A DNA stretch of 64,000 bases from Sphingomonadales bacterium. Lineage in GTDB: Bacteria; Pseudomonadota; Alphaproteobacteria; Sphingomonadales; Sphingomonadaceae. Shown in pieces: positions 3,122 to 58,577 of this stretch (the first letter of the stretch is position 1; every line of letters starts with the position of its first letter). The stretch spans positions 157-64,156 of the forward strand of contig JAYTPB010000047.1 in the NCBI GenBank assembly GCA_043747445.1. Direction: 5' to 3'. Position numbers and translations under genes: made by a program. A model generated the notes under the pieces. It saw nothing but the letters and a program-made list of their open reading frames with translations, had not been told where the DNA came from and searched no databases.

Positions 3122-4351
3122 TCAGGCGTTAACCAATAATTCGGCTGGTTCGGGATGGCCGAGAAACCCGCTTGGGCTGGCCGAACGACCATAAGCCCCG
3201 GCCATAAACACCGCGACCAAATCCCCCACCTCAGCGCGCGGAATGTTCACCGCGTCACCTAGCCGGTCAAGCGGGGTGCAGAGGCAACCAACGATGCTCA
3301 CCACCTCTTCTGGCACACCCGCAAAGCGCGAGGCAATCGCCACCGGATAGTTACGCCGCACCACCGTGCCGAAATTCCCCGATGCCGCAAGCTGATGATG
3401 CAACCCGCCGTCAGTCACGAGAAAAACCTCCCCGTGGCTGGTCTTGCGGTCAACAATCCGCGTCAGGTAAACCCCGGCCTCGCCCACCAGATAACGGCCA
3501 AGCTCAATCGCAAAGCGCGTATTAGCAAGACTTTGCGGCAATGCCGCCAGCCGGGCAGTCAGCGCTTCGCCGACGCGTTCAAGATCAACCGGGATGTCCT
3601 TGGGAAAATAAGGGATACCAAATCCGCCGCCTAGATTGACCAGCGGCGGCACCGCGCCAATCGCATCGGCAAGTGCTGCGGCCAAATCAAGCGTTTGCCC
3701 CTGCGTCGTTGCGATGGCTTCGGCGTCAAGCGCTTGTGATCCAGCAAAAATATGAAACCCGCGCCAATCCGCGCCTGCCGCAATCAGTGATTTGACGAGC
3801 GCCGCCGCGTGGTCAGCATCAACCCCGAACGGCTTTGCCCCGCCACCCATCCGCATTCCCGAGCCACGCAGATCAAAATCGGGATTGACCCGCACCGCAA
3901 GCTTGGGCGCGGTGCCAAGGCGCTCAGCGATGGTCAGCGCGCGGTGCGCCTCGCCCTCAGATTCGAGATTGAGCGTGACGCCCGCGACAATCGCTGCCTC
4001 AAGCTCGCGGTCTCGCTTGCCCGGCCCCGCAAACGAAATATGCCGCCCGCCCGAAGTGAGCGCCAGCGCCATTTCGCCCGATGACGCGACATCAAGGCCG
4101 TCAACCAACGCCGCTATCGCAGTGAGCAGCGCAGGCATTGGGTTGGCCTTAATCGCATAATGAAGCGCAAGCTCAGCCGGAAACGCGGCGCGAAACCGCG
4201 CGATCCGCGCTTTGATCAGCGCGAAATCATAAACGAACAGCGGCGTATCGCCCGCACGCGCGGCGAGCGTTTCGACGTCTTCACCGCCAATCATCAGCCG
4301 TCCCGCGTCGTCCGCCGCAAAATGTGCTGGAATAGTGCCCATTGGTTTCAT
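3122..4351 (-). CDS. Pyridoxal-dependent decarboxylase, exosortase A system-associated (Orn/DAP/Arg decarboxylase fold)
   Basis: 409 aa. It has the HYAIKANP PLP-lysine motif, GGGFGIPY and a C-terminal beta-barrel segment. ATGA overlap with the upstream ligase gene. Confidence 0.85.
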   Translation of the reverse strand: MKPMGTIPAHFAADDAGRLMIGGEDVETLAARAGDTPLFVYDFALIKARIARFRAAFPAELALHYAIKANPMPALLTAIAALVDGLDVASSGEMALALTSGGRHISFAGPGKRDRELEAAIVAGVTLNLESEGEAHRALTIAERLGTAPKLAVRVNPDFDLRGSGMRMGGGAKPFGVDADHAAALVKSLIAAGADWRGFHIFAGSQALDAEAIATTQGQTLDLAAALADAIGAVPPLVNLGGGFGIPYFPKDIPVDLERVGEALTARLAALPQSLANTRFAIELGRYLVGEAGVYLTRIVDRKTSHGEVFLVTDGGLHHQLAASGNFGTVVRRNYPVAIASRFAGVPEEVVSIVGCLCTPLDRLGDAVNIPRAEVGDLVAVFMAGAYGRSASPSGFLGHPEPAELLVNA

Positions 4352-34737: not shown

Positions 34738-35157
34738 TTATTTTTGGTTCACGCGGAGGCGCGGAGACGCGGAGGATGTGTAATCATTGACGATACGACG
34801 GAGCCCTTCTTTGAGCGTTGCGCCGCCAAAATTTATGAGCAGCCCAACGGGCTGCTTTGTCAAACGAAGATAGGTTAGAAGTTGTTTGGCATGAGCCGCG
34901 TTTAATGATTCGACTGATTTTAGTTCAATCAGCAGACGATCATCCACTATCAAATCGATTTTGAAAGCGGCTTCAAACTTCATGTCCTCAAATTCAATAT
35001 CAACTGGCTTTTGCCGAACAACTGAATACCCAAGTTTGGCCAATTTGCCTGCCAAAACAGTCTCATAAACGCTCTCAAGAAGGCCCGACCCAAGATCACA
35101 GTGTATGCGCACCGCAAGGTCAATCACATCACCAGTAATCGCGTCAATATCTCTCAA
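34738..35157 (-). CDS. GxxExxY family protein (PD-(D/E)xK-like, 23S-rRNA-IVS-type selfish gene)
   Basis: 139 aa, TTG start. Signature GSGLLESVYETVL (GxxExxY) followed by IDLIVDDRLLIELK. Visibly lower GC than its neighbours. The C-terminus (SASPRLRVNQK) is encoded by the flanking repeat. Confidence 0.8.
   Translation of the reverse strand: MRDIDAITGDVIDLAVRIHCDLGSGLLESVYETVLAGKLAKLGYSVVRQKPVDIEFEDMKFEAAFKIDLIVDDRLLIELKSVESLNAAHAKQLLTYLRLTKQPVGLLINFGGATLKEGLRRIVNDYTSSASPRLRVNQK
34746..34780. repeat. Left inverted repeat of the GxxExxY element
   Basis: GGTTCACGCGGAGGCGCGGAGACGCGGAGGATGTG closely matches the reverse complement of 35160-35201 (GTTCGCGCGGAGACGCGGAGACGCGGGGACGCGGAGGGTG). Both are built from GCGGAGA/CGCGGAG heptads. 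Confidence 0.7.
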
Positions 35158-35210: not shown

Positions 35211-36149
35211 TTAAATTGCTTTCAGAAGACCCTCAATATCATCCATTCTGACGAGCGACATCACCGCAACCTCCCCCACTGCACTGCGCTTGACCATTGG
35301 CCCTAGCACCTTGCCTCCAAATTCGACGAAGTGATGCACCCCCGCAGCCTCCATCGCGATCACCGATTCGCGCCAGCGGACGCGACCTGTGACTTGTTCG
35401 ACGAGCAGAGTGCGGATCGTGTCGGCATCAGCAACCGGAGCCGCCGTCACATTAGCATAAAGTGGAACGAGTGGAGCCTGTAGCGAAGCATCGGCCAAAG
35501 CCTTCGCCATTGCGTCCGCCGCTGGCTGCATCAGGGGGCAGTGGAACGGCGCGGATACGGGGAGCAACACCCCCCGTTTGATGCCATGATCCTTGGTGAG
35601 CGCAATCGCGCGGTCAATCGCGGCCTTGTGTCCCGAAATCACCACCTGGCCCGGATCATTATCATTAGCGACAGTGCAGATTTCGCCCTCCGCCGCCGCA
35701 TCAGCCAGCGCTTGTGCTTTTTCGATGTCAGCGCCGAGCAGCGCAGCCATCGCGCCAATCCCAACTGGAACAGCGGCCTGCATCGCTTCACCGCGCAGGC
35801 GCAGCAGCCGGGCTGTTGTTGCCAGATCAAGCGCGCCCGCCGCACACAGTGCTGAATATTCGCCCAGACTGTGTCCTGCGACAAAATCGCACTTATCGAC
35901 GAGTGACACACCGCCCTCCCGCTCAAGCACGCGCAGCGTCGCAATCGCATTCGCCATGATCGCGGGCTGAGCATTGGCGGTGAGCATCAATTGATCCTCC
36001 GGCCCTTCGCACATCAGCTTGAACAGGTTCTGGCCGAGCGCGTCATCAACCTCTTGAAACACTTCACGCGCCACGGTGCTCGCTTGGCTCAGCGCAAGCC
36101 CCATGCCAACCGACTGGCTGCCCTGCCCCGGAAAAATAAATGCCCGCAT
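35211..36149 (-). CDS. fabD: Malonyl CoA-ACP transacylase
   Basis: 312 aa. FPGQGSQ and the active-site GHSLGEYSAL. Confidence 0.95.
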   Translation of the reverse strand: MRAFIFPGQGSQSVGMGLALSQASTVAREVFQEVDDALGQNLFKLMCEGPEDQLMLTANAQPAIMANAIATLRVLEREGGVSLVDKCDFVAGHSLGEYSALCAAGALDLATTARLLRLRGEAMQAAVPVGIGAMAALLGADIEKAQALADAAAEGEICTVANDNDPGQVVISGHKAAIDRAIALTKDHGIKRGVLLPVSAPFHCPLMQPAADAMAKALADASLQAPLVPLYANVTAAPVADADTIRTLLVEQVTGRVRWRESVIAMEAAGVHHFVEFGGKVLGPMVKRSAVGEVAVMSLVRMDDIEGLLKAI

Positions 36150-36167
36150 TGGAAATATCCTTTGATT

Positions 36168-37208
36168 CTAATCGAAGACGGTATTGCTTTTTTCAACCGT
36201 CCACGTCTGCCCCTTGGAAAGCAGCGCCTGCATATCGGCGCGTTTGCCTTCGGACAGTTTGGCATTTTGCTCAGTCACCGCACGATCAAACGTCGGGCGC
36301 GGATGATCAAAAATGACGCCGAGCGCAATGGGCAGGCCGTCCTCAATCGCCATATCGACGAGCATCATCGCGATGCCGCGATTGGTGACGTTGTGGGTAA
36401 TAACGCCAGCACCTTCCCAATCACCATCAACCACATCAACCACTTGCAGCGTAAGCTCTTCACTATTGAGGTGAAGCCCCTTGGTGCCGCCTGCGAACAG
36501 CATTGGCTTGCCGTCTTCAAGCCAAATCTGGTTGAGCGGCGCGTTGCCCTTGTCAGTGAACCCTGCAAACACATCATCATTATAAACGATGCAATTCTGG
36601 TAAATCTCAACAAAGCCAGTGCCCCGGTGCGCGTGCGCAGCTTTCAGCACTTCGGTCAGACGCTTGTGCGTATCAATCCCGCGCGCCACAAAACGTGCGC
36701 CCGATCCAAGCGCAAACGCGCAAGGCGTCGCCGGACGATCCACCGAACCATAAGGCGTTGACGGGCTGCGTGTGCCGACGCGTGAAGTTGGCGAATATTG
36801 CCCCTTGGTCAGGCCGTAAATTTCGTTGTTGAAGAGCAGCACCTGGCAATCAAGATTGCGGCGGATCAGGTGCATCGTATGATTGCCACCGATCGACAGC
36901 GCGTCACCATCCCCCGTGATAATCCAGACATCAAGCTCTGGATTGGCGAGCTTCACCCCCGTCGCCACCGCAGGCGCGCGGCCGTGGATGGTGTGGAATC
37001 CGTAAGTTTCCATATAATAGGGGAAACGCGATGAGCAGCCGATCCCGCTAATAAACACGGTATTTTCAGGCTTCACGCCAAGCTCTGGCATCGTCCGCTG
37101 AACCGCCTTGAGGATCGCATAATCGCCGCATCCGGGGCACCAGCGCACCTCCTGATCAGTCTCCCAATCCTTGGGGGAGCCTTTAGCGATTGGGGTCATG
37201 TCGTTCAT
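36168..37208 (-). CDS. korB: 2-oxoglutarate/2-oxoacid:ferredoxin oxidoreductase beta subunit
   Basis: 346 aa. CPGCGDY, and TPP-binding GDGD...GGNH motifs. Confidence 0.92.
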   Translation of the reverse strand: MNDMTPIAKGSPKDWETDQEVRWCPGCGDYAILKAVQRTMPELGVKPENTVFISGIGCSSRFPYYMETYGFHTIHGRAPAVATGVKLANPELDVWIITGDGDALSIGGNHTMHLIRRNLDCQVLLFNNEIYGLTKGQYSPTSRVGTRSPSTPYGSVDRPATPCAFALGSGARFVARGIDTHKRLTEVLKAAHAHRGTGFVEIYQNCIVYNDDVFAGFTDKGNAPLNQIWLEDGKPMLFAGGTKGLHLNSEELTLQVVDVVDGDWEGAGVITHNVTNRGIAMMLVDMAIEDGLPIALGVIFDHPRPTFDRAVTEQNAKLSEGKRADMQALLSKGQTWTVEKSNTVFD

Positions 37209-37210
37209 AT
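37188..37210. repeat. Direct repeat copy 1 (native korB start region)
   Basis: GATTGGGGTCATGTCGTTCATAT matches 38016-38038 at 21 of 23 positions, with the last 16 nt identical. On the minus strand it encodes MNDMTPI. Confidence 0.85.
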
Positions 37211-37816
37211 AGATTTTCTCGCTTCCTGATTTCTCAAAACAGCATCAAGTGCCGCCATCGCCCGGTCGTGATTTTCCTTTTGGGTCTTTTTCTGTGATGC
37301 AAACCTTCCGCCATCATTGGCGCGCTCATACACGGCTGCAGTAGAATTTATCTTCTGCGCTTTTTCCAGGCCGTCCAAATAATCATGCGTCGAGAGAACA
37401 ATGATGCGTTTGCGGTCTTTTTCTGGGATGAATAGCCCATTGAGCACCTTGTCATCCTCAGTCAGCAAAAGTGCCTGCTCTTCGCCTTCGAGGAAAGGGG
37501 AGTAACGGGCAACTTCAATAGCGGCACGTTCTCCCATATCTGGCGTCTTAACCTTTTCTCGCGTCAGCATCGAAAAATGTGTCGCAAACACTCGCGAAGG
37601 CACAATATTGATCTGATCCGCATGAGCCTGCGTCCATTCAGCAATATCTGCTGCACCAATAGCGGTGCTATTGCTGGTTGCTTCATAAAACACTGCATCC
37701 GGTATGATCACTGGCAAATCCAAAATCAGCAAATAGTCCAAGGACTCCGCCGCAGCCAAAGTGATCAATGGCCCGGTATCCATCAAAAAAATGCGCAGGT
37801 TGAAATCCTCAGCCAT
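37205..37816 (-). CDS. PIN-like (DUF3368-type) putative toxin/nuclease
   Basis: ATG at 37816; the track ORF opens at a TTG at 37834. Motifs follow the DUF3368/PIN order: IFLMDTGPLITLAAAESLDYLLIL..VIIPDAVFYE, then MGERAAIEVA, then LLLTEDDK. The start has an 8-nt overlap (ATGGCTGA) with the upstream 75-aa ORF, and the stop has an ATGA overlap with the korB start. Confidence 0.65.
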   Translation of the reverse strand: MAEDFNLRIFLMDTGPLITLAAAESLDYLLILDLPVIIPDAVFYEATSNSTAIGAADIAEWTQAHADQINIVPSRVFATHFSMLTREKVKTPDMGERAAIEVARYSPFLEGEEQALLLTEDDKVLNGLFIPEKDRKRIIVLSTHDYLDGLEKAQKINSTAAVYERANDGGRFASQKKTQKENHDRAMAALDAVLRNQEARKSI

Positions 37817-38036
37817 TGGACTTTCGCTCTGCAAGCTGCCTCACAATTTCGATGCCTTCCGCGTTGTAAGGTTTGCCATATTGCGGAAGAGGCAAATGCG
37901 CCTCATGCAACTTCATTAGCGTTTCGCCGAAACTGATCGGTTCACCCAACAAATCGCCTAATTCCTGTCTGGTAATCTCGCCCGCACTGAAACGATCCAG
38001 CGGGGTACGGTTCGGGATGGGAGTCATGTCGTTCAT
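37809..38036 (-). CDS. 75-aa putative antitoxin (UPF0175-like helix-turn-helix)
   Basis: The N-terminal MNDMTPI is identical to KorB residues 1-7 and is encoded by the repeat. AGGAA lies 5-6 nt upstream of the ATG. The segment GEITRQELGDLLGEPISFGETLMKLHEAHLPLP resembles UPF0175 partners of DUF3368 proteins. Confidence 0.5.
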   Translation of the reverse strand: MNDMTPIPNRTPLDRFSAGEITRQELGDLLGEPISFGETLMKLHEAHLPLPQYGKPYNAEGIEIVRQLAERKSNG

Positions 38037-38038
38037 AT
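38016..38038. repeat. Direct repeat copy 2 (duplicated korB start region)
   Basis: GATGGGAGTCATGTCGTTCATAT; see copy 1. Confidence 0.85.
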
Positions 38039-38052
38039 CATTTCCTAACCTA

Positions 38053-38391
38053 TCAATCCCTGATTAAACTTGTGACAAACTCAAACGGAATCGCCAAGAA
38101 GAAACTCAAGCCCAGCAGTCCTAACCAACTTACCCACCTCGGAACCACTCCTGTACCAGCAGTAAGTTCCCACGCTTCAAGGCCAAAACCTACATCGTCA
38201 TGCGAAGCTAAATCCGGAGCGCGACGTTCAATGTACCAACTGATTAGAACAGAGTTCACGACATAGAGAACAGCGCCGAAACAAAAACATACCGCAAAAT
38301 ATGCCCAATACGGCAATGCTAGTATCTTAACAGTCATCATAGATACCGATGCTGCAAAAAACGTCAGGAAGCAGAATATTAAAAATCGCAT
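38053..38391 (-). CDS. Small three-TM membrane protein, no recognisable family
   Basis: ATG at 38391 (MRFLIFCFLTFFAASVSMMTV...). Three hydrophobic helices. It lies in the lowest-GC part of the window, 37-38% by my hand count of three 60-nt samples. The RBS is weak. Confidence 0.45.
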   Translation of the reverse strand: MRFLIFCFLTFFAASVSMMTVKILALPYWAYFAVCFCFGAVLYVVNSVLISWYIERRAPDLASHDDVGFGLEAWELTAGTGVVPRWVSWLGLLGLSFFLAIPFEFVTSLIRD

Positions 38392-38452
38392 CCCATTTAA
38401 CCTTGTTTTAGGGTAAATAATGAAACGAGTTGAGGATAGCAGCGGCCAAAAC

Positions 38453-40345
38453 TCATGAAAGCGCTCCTTCAATCGCCGTTGTAATCTCGGCAATCGTAAA
38501 TGGCTGGCCCGAAACCTTGTTCAGCGGGCGGGCATCAACCAGATATTGATCGCGCAATACCGTCTTGAACTGGCCGGTGTTCATTTCGGGCACGATCACC
38601 TTGTCGTAACCCTTGAGCAGCTCACCCAGATTTTTGGGAAGCGGCCAAATGTGGCGGACGTGGATGTGGCTGACATCTAGCCCCTTGCGGCGGCTGCGCA
38701 GCACCGCCTGATGGATCGGGCCAAAGGTTGATCCCCAACCGACAATGGCAAGCTTGCCGCCCGGAACGCCGAGCGAGATTTCCTGATCAGGAATGCTGTC
38801 AGCAACGCCGAGCACTTTGTTCTGGCGGATGTCAGTCATCATCTGATGATTTTCCGAACCATAGTTGATGTGGCCGGTATCAACTTCTTTCTCGATCCCG
38901 CCGATGCGGTGGAGCAATCCGGGGGTGCCGGGCTTCACCCAAGGCCGGGCGAGTTTATGATCACGCCCATAAGGTTTGAACCCGCCTTCGGGCACATGAT
39001 TCAAAAATGTCACCGGGAAAGGCGCATAAGCGTCCATATCGGGGATCGCCCAAGGCTCGGCCGCGTTGGCGATATAGCCGTCGGTCAAGAGCATCACTGG
39101 CGTCATATATTGCACCGCGATCCGCACCGCCTCAATCGCGCATTCAAATGCATCAGCGGGAGAACAGGCGGAAATCACAGGCATCGGCGTATCGCCGTTG
39201 CGCCCATAAACTGCCTGATAAAGATCGCTCTGCTCAGTCTTGGTGGGCAGCCCAGTCGAAGGCCCGCCGCGCTGTGAATTGATGATGATGAGCGGAAGCT
39301 CAGTCATCACTGCAAGCCCCATCGCCTCACCCTTCAAGGCAATCCCCGGCCCTGATGACGATGTGACGCCCAGTTTGCCTGCATAAGACGCGCCGATGGC
39401 TGACGCGATTGCCGCAATCTCATCCTCGGCCTGAAACGTCGTCACGCCAAATTCTTTGAGGCGTGAAAGATGGTGGAGGATCGCCGAAGCAGGCGTGATC
39501 GGATAACCACCGAAGAATATCTTAAGCCCCGCAAGCTGCGCCCCTGCAACAATCCCAAGCGAAATCGACTCAGCACCCGTAATCGTGCGGTACTGCCCCG
39601 GTGCAACATTGGCCGCAGCGACATGATGCTGCTTCAGCCGCGCATCGCCAAGCCCGTCGCCGCTGATTTCTGCGGTTTCGCCGTATGCATGGCCAGCATT
39701 GAGCGCGGCGATATTGGCCTCCGCCAGCACAGGACTCTTGGCAAACTTCTCATTGAGCCACGCCACAATCGGCGCGCGGTCACGGTCAAACATCCAGAGC
39801 GCAAGGCCAAGCGTCCACATATTTTTGCAGCGCAGCGCTTCCTTATTGCCAAGCCCAAACGGCTTGACCGCATCAAGCGTCAGTTGGGAAATGTTGAAGT
39901 GCATCAACTGCCATTTGGAAAGGCTGCCATCCTCAAGCGGATTGGCCTCATAGGCCGCTTTTTTGAGGTTACGCTCACCAAATTCGCCATCATCAGCAAT
40001 GATCAGGCCGCCCGCTTTGAGCGCGCCAACATTGGTTTTGAGCGCGGCAGGGTTCATCGCAATCAGCACATCGGGTTCGTCGCCCGCCGTCGTGATTTCC
40101 GCCGAGCCGAAATTGATCTGAAACGCAGATACGCCGAACAACGTGCCCTGCGGCGCACGAATTTCGGCCGGAAAATCAGGGAAGGTGGCAAAATCATTGC
40201 CCGCCAGCGCGGATGACAGAGTGAACTGCCCCCCGGTTAACTGCATACCATCGCCTGAGTCGCCTGCAAAACGGACGACGACGGCTTCGGTGTTTTCGGG
40301 TGCGTTAAATATGGTCGCACTCTCGGTGCGCACGGCGGTGGCCAT
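38453..40345 (-). CDS. korA: 2-oxoglutarate/2-oxoacid:ferredoxin oxidoreductase alpha subunit
   Basis: 630 aa with a fused gamma-like N-terminal domain followed by the PFOR alpha core (GYPITPAS, GGPSTGLPTK). Confidence 0.92.
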   Translation of the reverse strand: MATAVRTESATIFNAPENTEAVVVRFAGDSGDGMQLTGGQFTLSSALAGNDFATFPDFPAEIRAPQGTLFGVSAFQINFGSAEITTAGDEPDVLIAMNPAALKTNVGALKAGGLIIADDGEFGERNLKKAAYEANPLEDGSLSKWQLMHFNISQLTLDAVKPFGLGNKEALRCKNMWTLGLALWMFDRDRAPIVAWLNEKFAKSPVLAEANIAALNAGHAYGETAEISGDGLGDARLKQHHVAAANVAPGQYRTITGAESISLGIVAGAQLAGLKIFFGGYPITPASAILHHLSRLKEFGVTTFQAEDEIAAIASAIGASYAGKLGVTSSSGPGIALKGEAMGLAVMTELPLIIINSQRGGPSTGLPTKTEQSDLYQAVYGRNGDTPMPVISACSPADAFECAIEAVRIAVQYMTPVMLLTDGYIANAAEPWAIPDMDAYAPFPVTFLNHVPEGGFKPYGRDHKLARPWVKPGTPGLLHRIGGIEKEVDTGHINYGSENHQMMTDIRQNKVLGVADSIPDQEISLGVPGGKLAIVGWGSTFGPIHQAVLRSRRKGLDVSHIHVRHIWPLPKNLGELLKGYDKVIVPEMNTGQFKTVLRDQYLVDARPLNKVSGQPFTIAEITTAIEGALS

Positions 40346-40505
40346 TATGATGTTTCCTGCAAACTTTGATGTGCCGCGCTTTAGGCGTGGTCACATGCGG
40401 ATGCAAAATAGTTATTATGCAGCAAAGCGCAATCTTTCTTGGCTCTCGACGGCAAGGAAAAAGCCATTTAGGCTTACCCCAAGATCATAATACCGGAGTT
40501 TGCCC

Positions 40506-41447
40506 ATGACCAAAGCCTATGTTCGCCCTGATGTTGAGGCGTTTCTCAATTTCCTTAACAATGTGCCCGGCCCAAAAATGCACGAGCTAACCCCCGATGA
40601 GGCGCGCGCGCAAATGCGGATGATGGGCGTCGTTGCTGAACTGCCCGTTGGTGATTTGGCAATCGTGCGCGATCTTGAAATTTCGGGACCAGCCGGGATA
40701 ATCCCCGCGCGGCTTTATGACGCCCGCGAAACGCGCAGCGCTGGGCCAGTGATGGTGTTTTATCACGGCGGCGGCTTTGTGATAGGCGATCTTGAAACCC
40801 ACGGGCCTTACTGTGCAGAGGCCGCGCGCCAGCTTGATATACCCGTTATCTCAATTGATTACCGCCTTGCCCCCGAACATCCCTTCCCGGCAGCACCCGA
40901 AGATTGTGAGGCGGCAACGCGCTGGATTGCTGAGAATATCGCCTGTAATGGCCTGATCCTGTCAGGCGATAGCGCGGGCGGCAACCTCACCGTTGTTACC
41001 GCAATGGCGCTGCGTGATGCGCCCGCCGCTGTGCCCGTAATCGCGCAGAACCCGATTTACCCTTTCGTTTCAATGAGTGGTGATTGGGACAGTATGCGTG
41101 ATTTCGCTGACGGCTTCCTGCTCTCAAGCGACGGCATGGCATGGTTTAGCGACGCCTATGCCAGCGACCCCGAGGATCGCCGCGCGGCACCGCTTTCGCA
41201 TGATCACGCAGGCCTGCCACCAACCGTGGTGATGACTGCGAGTCTTGATCCGCTCCATGATCAGGGCGTTGCTTATGTTGCGGCACTCGAAGCGGCGGGC
41301 GTTCACGTCCGCCATGTTGAGGCCGACGGCAACATCCACGGCCTGATCAACCTGCGCAAGATCATCCCTTCGGCGCAAGACGATATCACGCGCAATCTTG
41401 ATGCGTTGAAGGTAGTGCTGGCTGAGGTTGTAATGGCCCCCGCATGA
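40506..41447 (+). CDS. Alpha/beta hydrolase, hormone-sensitive-lipase-like esterase
   Basis: HGGGF oxyanion motif and GDSAGG nucleophile elbow. ATG at 40506 with GGAG 7 nt upstream; the track start at 40500 is a TTG. Confidence 0.85.
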   Translation: MTKAYVRPDVEAFLNFLNNVPGPKMHELTPDEARAQMRMMGVVAELPVGDLAIVRDLEISGPAGIIPARLYDARETRSAGPVMVFYHGGGFVIGDLETHGPYCAEAARQLDIPVISIDYRLAPEHPFPAAPEDCEAATRWIAENIACNGLILSGDSAGGNLTVVTAMALRDAPAAVPVIAQNPIYPFVSMSGDWDSMRDFADGFLLSSDGMAWFSDAYASDPEDRRAAPLSHDHAGLPPTVVMTASLDPLHDQGVAYVAALEAAGVHVRHVEADGNIHGLINLRKIIPSAQDDITRNLDALKVVLAEVVMAPA

Positions 41448-58121: not shown

Positions 58122-58577
58122 ATGGATTTTTCAAAGCTGGCATCTAAGGGCGAGTTGATTCAAAGTAAGAGTATGTCGCCTTTATACAATTTTCACCCTG
58201 ATTTTCCGACAAAAAATGTGAAAGCGTTTTGTATCCGTGCATCTTATCAAATAGCCGATAAAAGTATCGAACATCTGGTAATTGGTTATTTTGACGATCA
58301 GCACCGCTTAATCCAAGTTGGTGAAGCCTGTTCAGATGGTATTGATACACTTTCAGTGCCTATCCGGAAAATTACGCATAATGCGCTCAACCTGAACGCA
58401 CATAGTATTATTTTAGTGCACAATCATCCAAGCGGTGACCCTAAACCGAGCCGTAACGACATTAAACAGACACGCGATATGGCGCGTATACTCAGTCCAC
58501 TTGGTGTTTCCATTGACGATCATGTAATTGTCGCAGGCGATCAACAATATAGCTTTCGTGAGGCAGGGCTTCTCTAA
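58122..58577 (+). CDS. RadC-like JAB/MPN domain protein (domain-only, orphan)
   Basis: 151 aa. JAMM motif HNHPSGDPKPSRNDIKQT. It lacks the N-terminal HhH part of full-length RadC. One 60-nt sample of this islet counted 42% GC by hand. Confidence 0.8.
   Translation: MDFSKLASKGELIQSKSMSPLYNFHPDFPTKNVKAFCIRASYQIADKSIEHLVIGYFDDQHRLIQVGEACSDGIDTLSVPIRKITHNALNLNAHSIILVHNHPSGDPKPSRNDIKQTRDMARILSPLGVSIDDHVIVAGDQQYSFREAGLL

Follow-up and report, generated by a model that had tools for sequence, protein, structure and literature searches.

A putative PIN-type toxin-antitoxin-like gene pair inserted between korA and korB in Sphingomonadales

Pairs made of a COG2886 (UPF0175) gene and a COG2405 (DUF3368, PF11848) gene are predicted PIN toxin-antitoxin modules (Makarova et al. 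2009, PMC2701414; Matelska et al. 2017, PMC5499597), described mainly in archaea and cyanobacteria. Another PIN nuclease, PDC-S70, is a defense candidate that is not experimentally validated (PMC12988326). Toxin-antitoxin modules tied to other functions are also described: CreTA safeguards CRISPR-Cas (PMC10097628), and toxin-antitoxin cassettes stabilize plasmids (PMC6354349). Here we describe a gene pair, consisting of the small gene sm75 and a gene for a 203-aa PIN-like protein, that lies between korA and korB on a 64,000-nt stretch of DNA from an uncultured sphingomonad (Sphingomonadales; assembly GCA_043747445.1, contig JAYTPB010000047.1, positions 157 to 64,156; hereafter the window). With modest confidence, we lean toward reading it as a captured toxin-antitoxin-like module that uses the transcription and translation of the kor operon and persists as a selfish or defense element, occasionally lost or swapped. 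The first-pass annotation of the window had presented the arrangement as one not known to be described, and we likewise found no account of it in the literature searched.

The closest described kind appears to be the predicted COG2886-COG2405 pair, with membership of the toxin unproven and the partner failing the family test. As in that pair, a small helical partner lies upstream of, and overlaps, a VapC-group PIN-like gene with an hhhDTGPLI-type first motif; both are computationally predicted modules found in varied contexts, and precomputed tables list PF11848 for most homologs of the window protein. The differences are that hmmscan gave no PF11848 match and the partner no PF03683 match, that the window family is small (67 clusters at E <= 1e-30), with members of about 200 aa carrying a C-terminal extension of about 55 aa, and that the kor-embedded clade sits inside an enzyme operon, apparently without a promoter of its own. 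VapBC systems such as those of Pyrococcus VapC4 (5h4g) and M. tuberculosis VapC20 (5wzf) share the PIN fold, the acidic active-site residues and the antitoxin-first overlapping genes, but identity to the window protein is 12-20%, TM-scores are 0.45 and 0.60, sm75 is not of the ribbon-helix-helix, AbrB or Phd type, and no autoregulated promoter is evident. For 50 of 57 family members, weak hidden Markov model (HMM) similarity within the N-terminal half of the PIN domain gives a link to PDC-S70; E values are no better than about 1e-7 with partial coverage, however, and PDC-S70 is scored as a single-gene system, mostly archaeal. As with CreTA and the plasmid cassettes, there is a physical link between the module and a host function, and losing or silencing it could carry a penalty, but here the link is positional and translational, within the operon of a two-subunit enzyme, rather than regulatory, and any guarding would be hypothetical.

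Content of the korA-korB interval

From profile matches, korA and korB are confidently predicted to encode the alpha and beta subunits of a 2-oxoacid:acceptor oxidoreductase, the korA product matching POR, POR_N (5e-52), PFOR_II and TIGR03710 (3e-189) and the korB product TPP_enzyme_C and PorB_KorB. The 1,244 nt between them hold three open reading frames (ORFs) on the same minus strand (Table 1). The coordinates given by the first-pass annotation hold, and both overlaps that it claimed are found in the sequence: 8 nt, ATGGCTGA, shared by sm75 and the PIN-like ORF (37809-37816), and the 4-nt ATGA (37205-37208) that joins the PIN-like stop to the korB start and chains korB to the PIN-like gene, as had been stated. 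An alternative 209-aa form of the PIN-like ORF starts from TTG at 37834. Immediately after korA we also read a mini-ORF whose ATG overlaps the korA stop, the same position that the korB start takes in genomes with an empty junction. It is preceded by a GGAG in the korA 3' end and stops 5 nt short of the membrane-protein ATG, and may act as a relay of translational coupling.

Table 1. Positions of the kor locus features in the window and of accessory genes found at the korA/korB junction elsewhere
Feature	Sequence	Coordinates	Strand	Remarks
korA, alpha subunit of 2-oxoacid:acceptor oxidoreductase (predicted)	window	38453-40345	-	630 aa; TGA stop within ATGA 38453-38456
Mini-ORF	window	38397-38456	-	19 codons, read from sequence
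Slot-1 membrane-protein gene	window	38053-38391	-	112 aa, three hydrophobic segments
sm75, putative antitoxin	window	37809-38036	-	75 aa, partner of PIN-like gene
PIN-like nuclease gene, putative toxin	window	37205-37816	-	203 aa, ATG start
korB, beta subunit (predicted)	window	36168-37208	-	346 aa; ATG within ATGA containing the PIN-like stop
Direct-repeat copy 1	window	37995-38038	-	sm75 start: 2 nt upstream plus first 14 codons
Direct-repeat copy 2	window	37167-37210	-	korB start
HicA and HicB-like genes	L033 (Blastomonas sp. metagenome-assembled genome)	3391-4010		HicA 1.5e-20, HicB-like 7e-17; between korA and korB
GIY-YIG nuclease gene	L081	4570-5004	kor strand	korA/korB junction
Isochorismatase gene	L079	2207-2737	kor strand	korA/korB junction
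Bflower protein (PF21784) gene	L088	4636-5004	kor strand	korA/korB junction
DUF7660 protein gene	L085	4716-4985	kor strand	korA/korB junction
Membrane-protein gene	L031	4623-4979	kor strand	korA/korB junction
Membrane-protein gene	L063	4699-5004	kor strand	korA/korB junction
Secreted-protein gene	L087	4472-5008	kor strand	178 aa; korA/korB junction

When species-representative genomes were scanned with KorB, the best 80 of more than 595 korB loci were all from Sphingomonadales, and both kor genes were visible in 77 of them. None of the 77 contains sm75, the PIN-like gene or a remnant of either detectable by six-frame hmmsearch. The korA stop and korB start overlap in 26 of these loci (by 4 nt in 22), and the remaining spacers measure 1-135 nt in 37, 136-199 nt in 3 and at least 200 nt in 11. 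In locus L017, whose KorB is 87% identical to that of the window, the pair is absent and the spacer is just 35 nt, and the pair is also absent from the kor junction of L013. Judged by this comparison, the content of the gap is an insertion at the korA/korB junction, because the pair is absent from all 77 loci while 26 of them have an overlapping korA stop and korB start.

Base composition agrees with the proposal of the first-pass annotation that the DNA is a compositionally foreign insertion, which the low G+C content and the common empty junctions with overlapping stop and start in Sphingomonadales together bear out. The G+C content is 47.3% in the gap, 56-57% in korA and korB and 56.5% in the 64-kb window. 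The gap is the lowest among 1,256 sliding segments of the same length, 3.7 standard deviations under the mean; G+C at third codon positions is 42-59% in the gap genes and 64% in korA and korB. The low values counted earlier by hand proved exact (38.3% at 38041-38100, 36.7% at 38281-38340 and 36.7% at 38341-38400), although these three segments are local minima and the gap overall is less extreme. A scenario in which all relatives carry the same genes with native composition is contradicted, since empty sites are common and the composition is foreign. The window belongs to a 64,170-bp metagenome-assembled genome (MAG) contig whose closest KorB relatives are Sphingomonadales. The same proteins occur on independent NCBI, ENA, Logan and JGI contigs, and an assembly artifact is ruled out by the same arrangement on independent assemblies.

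The order korA, small gene, 74-78-aa gene, approximately 200-aa gene, korB recurs on independent metagenome and MAG contigs, at kor-embedded loci L001, L002, L003-5, L006-7, L011-12 and L178-180, with PIN-like proteins 41-90% identical to that of the window. The occupant of the first slot differs almost each time: the window has a membrane protein there, L001 an unrelated protein of 109 aa, L003 a 71-aa protein, L006 an isochorismatase and L011 a 90-aa protein. L001 has this unrelated gene despite a KorA 99% identical to that of the window, and its alignment with the window puts one breakpoint of the replacement at the korA stop and the other precisely on the ATG of sm75. In L176 the slot is vacant and sm75 starts on an ATGA that overlaps the korA stop. 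The earlier description of a single three-gene cassette thus fails on L001 and L176, and by these comparisons the gap is two units, a hypervariable first slot and a conserved sm75/PIN pair.

The 112-aa membrane protein has three hydrophobic segments in its hydropathy profile, and we found only seven homologs, with the conserved motif WELTAGTGVVPRWVSWLGLL; one homolog lies outside kor, in L181 (43% identity), and there was no Pfam, NCBIfam or PADLOC match. The public gene call for this protein is 95 aa long (P0184) and starts at an internal Met, while its homologs of 108-119 aa favor the 112-aa form with the first hydrophobic segment. A different family of 109-125 aa follows korA in L001 (1232-1561), L013 (5326-5679) and L075 (4627-5004); it has the motif (A/T)WFA.V.G..LPCVH..W and no Pfam match, and occurs both with and without the PIN pair.

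This distribution bears directly on whether the three genes might encode accessory subunits of the 2-oxoglutarate oxidoreductase or factors for its assembly, namely a membrane anchor, a small chaperone and a 203-aa maturation factor. Their shared orientation and translational coupling within the operon would suit such a role, as would the KorB N-terminal residues borne by sm75. However, most kor operons are without these genes (0 of the 77 related loci have the pair), the first gene is swapped or missing in close relatives, the pair is widespread without kor, the composition of the insert is foreign, and in L011 a PIN pseudogene stands beside intact korA and korB. We regard the chance of such a role as very small, and the distribution effectively excludes it.

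The PIN-like protein and its small partner

A first search with the PIN-like protein found 591 homologs at E <= 0.001, and a profile search of 1.84 billion representatives found 784 clusters at this threshold. In a 57-sequence alignment, D13, D40, E45, E96, E101 and E120 are invariant and D121/D122 nearly so, and the window protein has all of them. The motifs that the first-pass annotation had quoted (MDTGPLI, IPDAVFYE, GERAAIEVA and LLTEDDK) are indeed present and fall on invariant columns of the family. The AlphaFold2 model, with a predicted local distance difference test score (pLDDT) of 86 and a predicted TM-score of 0.85, was compared by Foldseek against the PDB, and PIN-containing chains came top with probability of about 1.0: 9g8n_M (1.6e-3), VapC4 5h4g (2e-3), 1v96 and VapC20 5wzf. 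These matches are modest, with E values of 1.6e-3 and above and the TM-scores given above. Chain 9g8n_M is from the human Ski2-exosome complex, and the match presumably falls on the PIN domain of the nuclease subunit. The fold match and the conserved acidic residues agree with the earlier assignment of the protein as PIN-like: by its predicted structure and alignment it has a PIN fold with an intact acidic site, followed by a conserved helical extension of about 55 aa at the C-terminus, and nuclease activity is predicted.

Placement within a named family is less clear. PF11848 appears in precomputed tables for most homologs; the entries of P0002, P0031 and P0095 are unmarked, and those of others are weak or faint. 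By hmmscan against Pfam-A, it matched neither the window protein (E <= 1) nor any of the 57 alignment members (E <= 0.1), and bridging through 10 further shorter relatives gave no PF11848 match either (E <= 0.01). On these profile searches, membership of DUF3368, as proposed by the first-pass annotation, is putative. PF20698 (PIN-TPR-GreABC) was matched below its threshold by 20 of the 57 homologs, and the PADLOC model of PDC-S70 by the window protein (3.7e-6) and 50 of the 57 members, at model positions 4-87 of 162; these weak similarities also point to a PIN-like protein. Taken together, the three gap proteins gave only sub-threshold matches to Pfam, NCBIfam and PADLOC (ElaD/SseL_C 0.009, FUSC-like 0.1 and PDC-S70 4e-6), and PDB sequence searches with the PIN-like protein, its profile and the partner profile gave nothing significant.

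The AlphaFold2 model of sm75 has four helices (pLDDT 77) and a disordered stretch of 10 residues at the N-terminus (pLDDT 51). The first-pass annotation had likened sm75 to UPF0175 partners. We found no PF03683 match in 35 family members (E <= 1) or in 10 divergent non-kor members (E <= 10) and no PDB fold match, and this part of the claim is not supported; the motif layout, which we take to resemble UPF0175, is a lead only, unconfirmed by profile. There was also no Pfam match and no PDB sequence match for sm75, and a helix-turn-helix reading draws solely on the helix layout because the fold search gave no better than E = 1.3. Weak matches of the partner to the VbhA antitoxin (about 1e-3, below threshold) were disregarded.

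The pairing itself is conserved well beyond kor. Homologs with a PIN identity of 38-51% occur in L008, in L010 and in 80 metagenome loci, and kor genes flank none of these. Most of the 82 loci with a readable upstream ORF have, ahead of the PIN-like gene, a homologous partner ORF (about 70-76 aa) that bears the motif YSRGEI..LG..FG.LL..L..LPLPR. Neighbors vary between these loci, that of L010 being a HepT/MNT/TacA island. The first-pass annotation had suspected a toxin-antitoxin-like pair, and sm75 and the PIN-like gene do form a conserved, context-independent pair in the gene order of type II toxin-antitoxin systems; the small upstream gene overlaps its neighbor and the pairing is kept across contexts. 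The ratio of nonsynonymous to synonymous substitution (dN/dS) is 0.08-0.15 for the PIN-like gene in unsaturated comparisons and 0.07-0.10 for sm75 against close relatives, and 0.01-0.02 for korB among close relatives. By these ratios (0.07-0.15), both genes of the pair are predicted to be functional and under purifying selection.

The korB-derived repeat and the history of the pair

The start of sm75 is a copy of the start of korB. The two segments (Table 1) form the longest direct repeat in the region (family D1), 44 nt at 75% identity with a spacing of 828 nt, and their 16-nt exact core, ATATGAACGACATGAC, occurs at these two copies only in the 64 kb, where 0 are expected by chance. In all kor-embedded loci examined, the N-terminus of sm75 equals the local N-terminus of KorB, with residual similarity in L176 and L177. 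MNDMTPI begins both proteins in the window, L001 and L003, and local variants are tracked: MNDLTP is found in both genes of L006, 25 of 26 nt are shared in L011, and L176 has a decayed copy. Among non-kor loci, at most 2 of 7 residues match the start of the downstream gene, so this N-terminal mimicry is specific to kor. The KorB N-terminus, MN[DE][MLI]T, is conserved across Sphingomonadales, as is the korB start ATGAACGAnATGAC. A shorter repeat (21 nt, 81%, family D5) between DNA just past the korA stop and korB codons ~30-37 is like chance-level repeats and was not used.

The simplest origin of the repeat would be an insertion, in frame and a few codons past the korB start, that duplicated its target and left sm75 on the original start, as in L176, while korB was regenerated downstream. 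The co-variation in L006 and L011 would need more, with gene conversion, an allele swap with a crossover in the repeat, or repeated recombinational integration as candidates. As a speculative extension, one we consider unlikely, the korB 5' repeat could serve as a portable homology arm that permits precise exit by recombination and Campbell-type single-crossover re-entry at any sphingomonad korB start (ATGAACGAnATGAC). More broadly, the junction would be a landing pad, precise to the nucleotide, for promoterless conflict genes that exploit the transcription and translational coupling of an operon, among them the PIN pair, HicAB, GIY-YIG and proteins of the Bflower and DUF7660 types. Such an arm would explain why the clade is monophyletic yet scattered, why empty sites are scarless, why PIN and KorB histories are incongruent and why sm75 matches the local korB.

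In a neighbor-joining tree of 88 sequences, the kor-embedded PIN proteins form one clade, and from this monophyly we argue for a single capture. In the KorB tree, carriers appear at four or more places, interleaved with empty-site species. The KorB proteins of the window, L011 and L178 are 97-99% identical, with synonymous divergence (dS) of 0.55-0.71, while PIN identity to the window is 41% in L178 and, over two aligned segments, 53-71% in L011, whose allele groups with L006. Divergent PIN alleles beside near-identical KorB proteins suggest that alleles moved between hosts. Because synonymous sites are saturated among the kor-embedded alleles, the insertion is, by this estimate, not recent. 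When hosts carrying different PIN alleles are compared, sliding korA and korB nucleotide identity stays flat (83-95%), shows no gradient of co-conversion, and is neither for nor against homing or recombination.

The PIN-like gene has decayed in one lineage. In L011 (5403-6004) and L012 (1142-1743), two independent assemblies, it is frameshifted into ORFs of 67 and 133 aa beside intact korA and korB that are 97-98% identical to those of the window, and the last PIN ORF still ends on the korB ATGA. This argues that the pair is dispensable and that korB has stayed coupled. L011 and the window share the final 27 nt ahead of korB despite the otherwise 53-71% PIN identity, which suggests a possible recombination breakpoint just inside the PIN 3' end between the two.

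Some of this history would also fit a domesticated post-transcriptional regulator, in which a PIN-like RNase, together with its partner, was co-opted to adjust the expression of kor. The two might fix the ratio of the subunits through cleavage of the korA-korB mRNA, or couple growth arrest to 2-oxoglutarate oxidation, and the KorB-like N-terminus of sm75 would make translation initiate alike on both genes. Long residence in kor of a monophyletic clade under purifying selection, a strict coupled chain whose ATGA onto korB is kept even in frameshifted L011, and an sm75 start that copies the korB start and tracks its variants (MNDL in L006, 25 of 26 nt in L011) all favor regulation of this kind. 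But the pair is found in none of the 77 species-representative genomes, the close relatives L017 and L013 included, is pseudogenized in L011/L012, has homologs that work in unrelated contexts, and exists as deeply divergent alleles in hosts with near-identical KorB, a pattern typical of conflict genes and not of housekeeping regulators. We consider such domestication quite unlikely.

The korA/korB junction and the role of the module

The pair is not alone in occupying this junction. Several of the 11 loci with spacers of at least 200 nt, plus the metagenome locus L013, carry other small genes on the same strand, mostly with ATGA or GTGA overlaps at both ends (Table 1). These occupants suggest that the korA/korB junction is an intra-operon hot spot for accessory genes, many of the conflict-system type, and we found no description of such a hot spot in the literature searched. 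It may have arisen in part because the conserved korB start, ATGAAC, contains TGA, so that any ORF reaching it from upstream in the matching frame stops at the ATG of korB.

Two of the occupants deserve separate mention. The HicAB genes of L033 are a second, unrelated toxin-antitoxin module at the junction, and the GIY-YIG gene of L081 is flanked by the repeated coding motif PRHSRFxGNP...WVPAKAGMT.

Among conflict-type functions, an abortive-infection module against phage, of a PIN type related to PDC-S70 and parked in a constitutively expressed operon, seems to us unlikely. The PDC-S70 models were matched by the window protein and most of its family, allelic diversification and host exchange resemble those of defense loci, and the junction is also used by the conflict-type HicAB, Bflower and DUF7660 genes. 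Those matches, however, are weak and confined to the N-terminal half of the models, PDC-S70, described as a system of one gene, is itself unvalidated, the phage and plasmid collections contained no homolog, and the window locus is without a surrounding defense island.

No more promoter-like and terminator-like sites were found in 35900-40700 than in shuffled sequences, and there was no Rfam match. Inside the gap we found no sigma-70-like site, in a scan that used the sigma-70 consensus and leaves non-consensus alphaproteobacterial promoters uncovered. In L176 there is no intergenic room between the korA stop and the sm75 start.

Under capture of a toxin-antitoxin-like module, the explanation we lean toward, two independent accessory units would have been inserted at the ancestral overlap of the korA stop and korB start. 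One lineage of the free-roaming pair would have been captured at the korB 5' end with duplication of the first korB codons, after which sm75 would carry the KorB N-terminus and korB would be regenerated downstream. Within the pair, the 203-aa PIN protein would be the toxin and sm75 the antitoxin that neutralizes it. Because the pair has no recognizable promoter of its own, it would be co-transcribed from the kor promoter; translation would be coupled through korA, the mini-ORF, the slot-1 gene, sm75, the PIN-like gene and korB, and ribosomes would pass the pair to reach korB. We infer that the pair, missing from most relatives, exchanged as alleles between hosts and decayed in one lineage, would survive as a selfish or addictive element that may also serve in defense, and not as part of the enzyme. 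Through the flanking direct repeat it could be lost precisely and possibly re-integrate.

Several points weigh against this explanation. The roles of toxin and antitoxin are putative. sm75 matches no known antitoxin family and has no confirmed DNA-binding fold. Typical type II modules carry their own autoregulated promoter, and none is seen here by the sigma-70 consensus scan. PIN domains are also found in non-toxin proteins. The PIN family has no homolog in the plasmid and phage collections, and mobility is inferred from the variety of contexts alone. Lastly, an old kor-embedded clade that appears to be under purifying selection would be equally compatible with a domesticated host function.

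Elsewhere in the window, another nuclease-like gene is embedded in a housekeeping operon: a 139-aa gene of the GxxExxY/PD-(D/E)XK type (34738-35157, minus strand; PDDEXK_3, 1.7e-35; 46% G+C, 45% at third codon positions) lies between fabG and fabD. Genes of this family are found at the same place in L011 (8153-8587) and directly after korB in L003 (7694-8089) and L013 (7136-7654). A 151-aa ORF at 58122-58577 (plus strand) has a RadC/JAB-like motif, HNHPSGDPKPSRNDI, recognized by eye, and adjoins another low-G+C stretch at about 57900.

The PIN and partner families are without confident Pfam-A or NCBIfam annotation in the libraries used and would merit family models. Further study is most worthwhile for the repeat derived from korB and for the hot spot at the junction. 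A toxin-antitoxin module on a chromosome is usually a free-standing, self-regulated unit whose role is debated, and an intra-operon home for a selfish or defense-type module is rare. The PIN pair in kor is a natural test of whether selfish modules can parasitize the expression signals of an operon, and it raises the questions of how the dosage of toxin to antitoxin would be controlled under a foreign promoter and whether such a module may make its operon harder to silence or delete.

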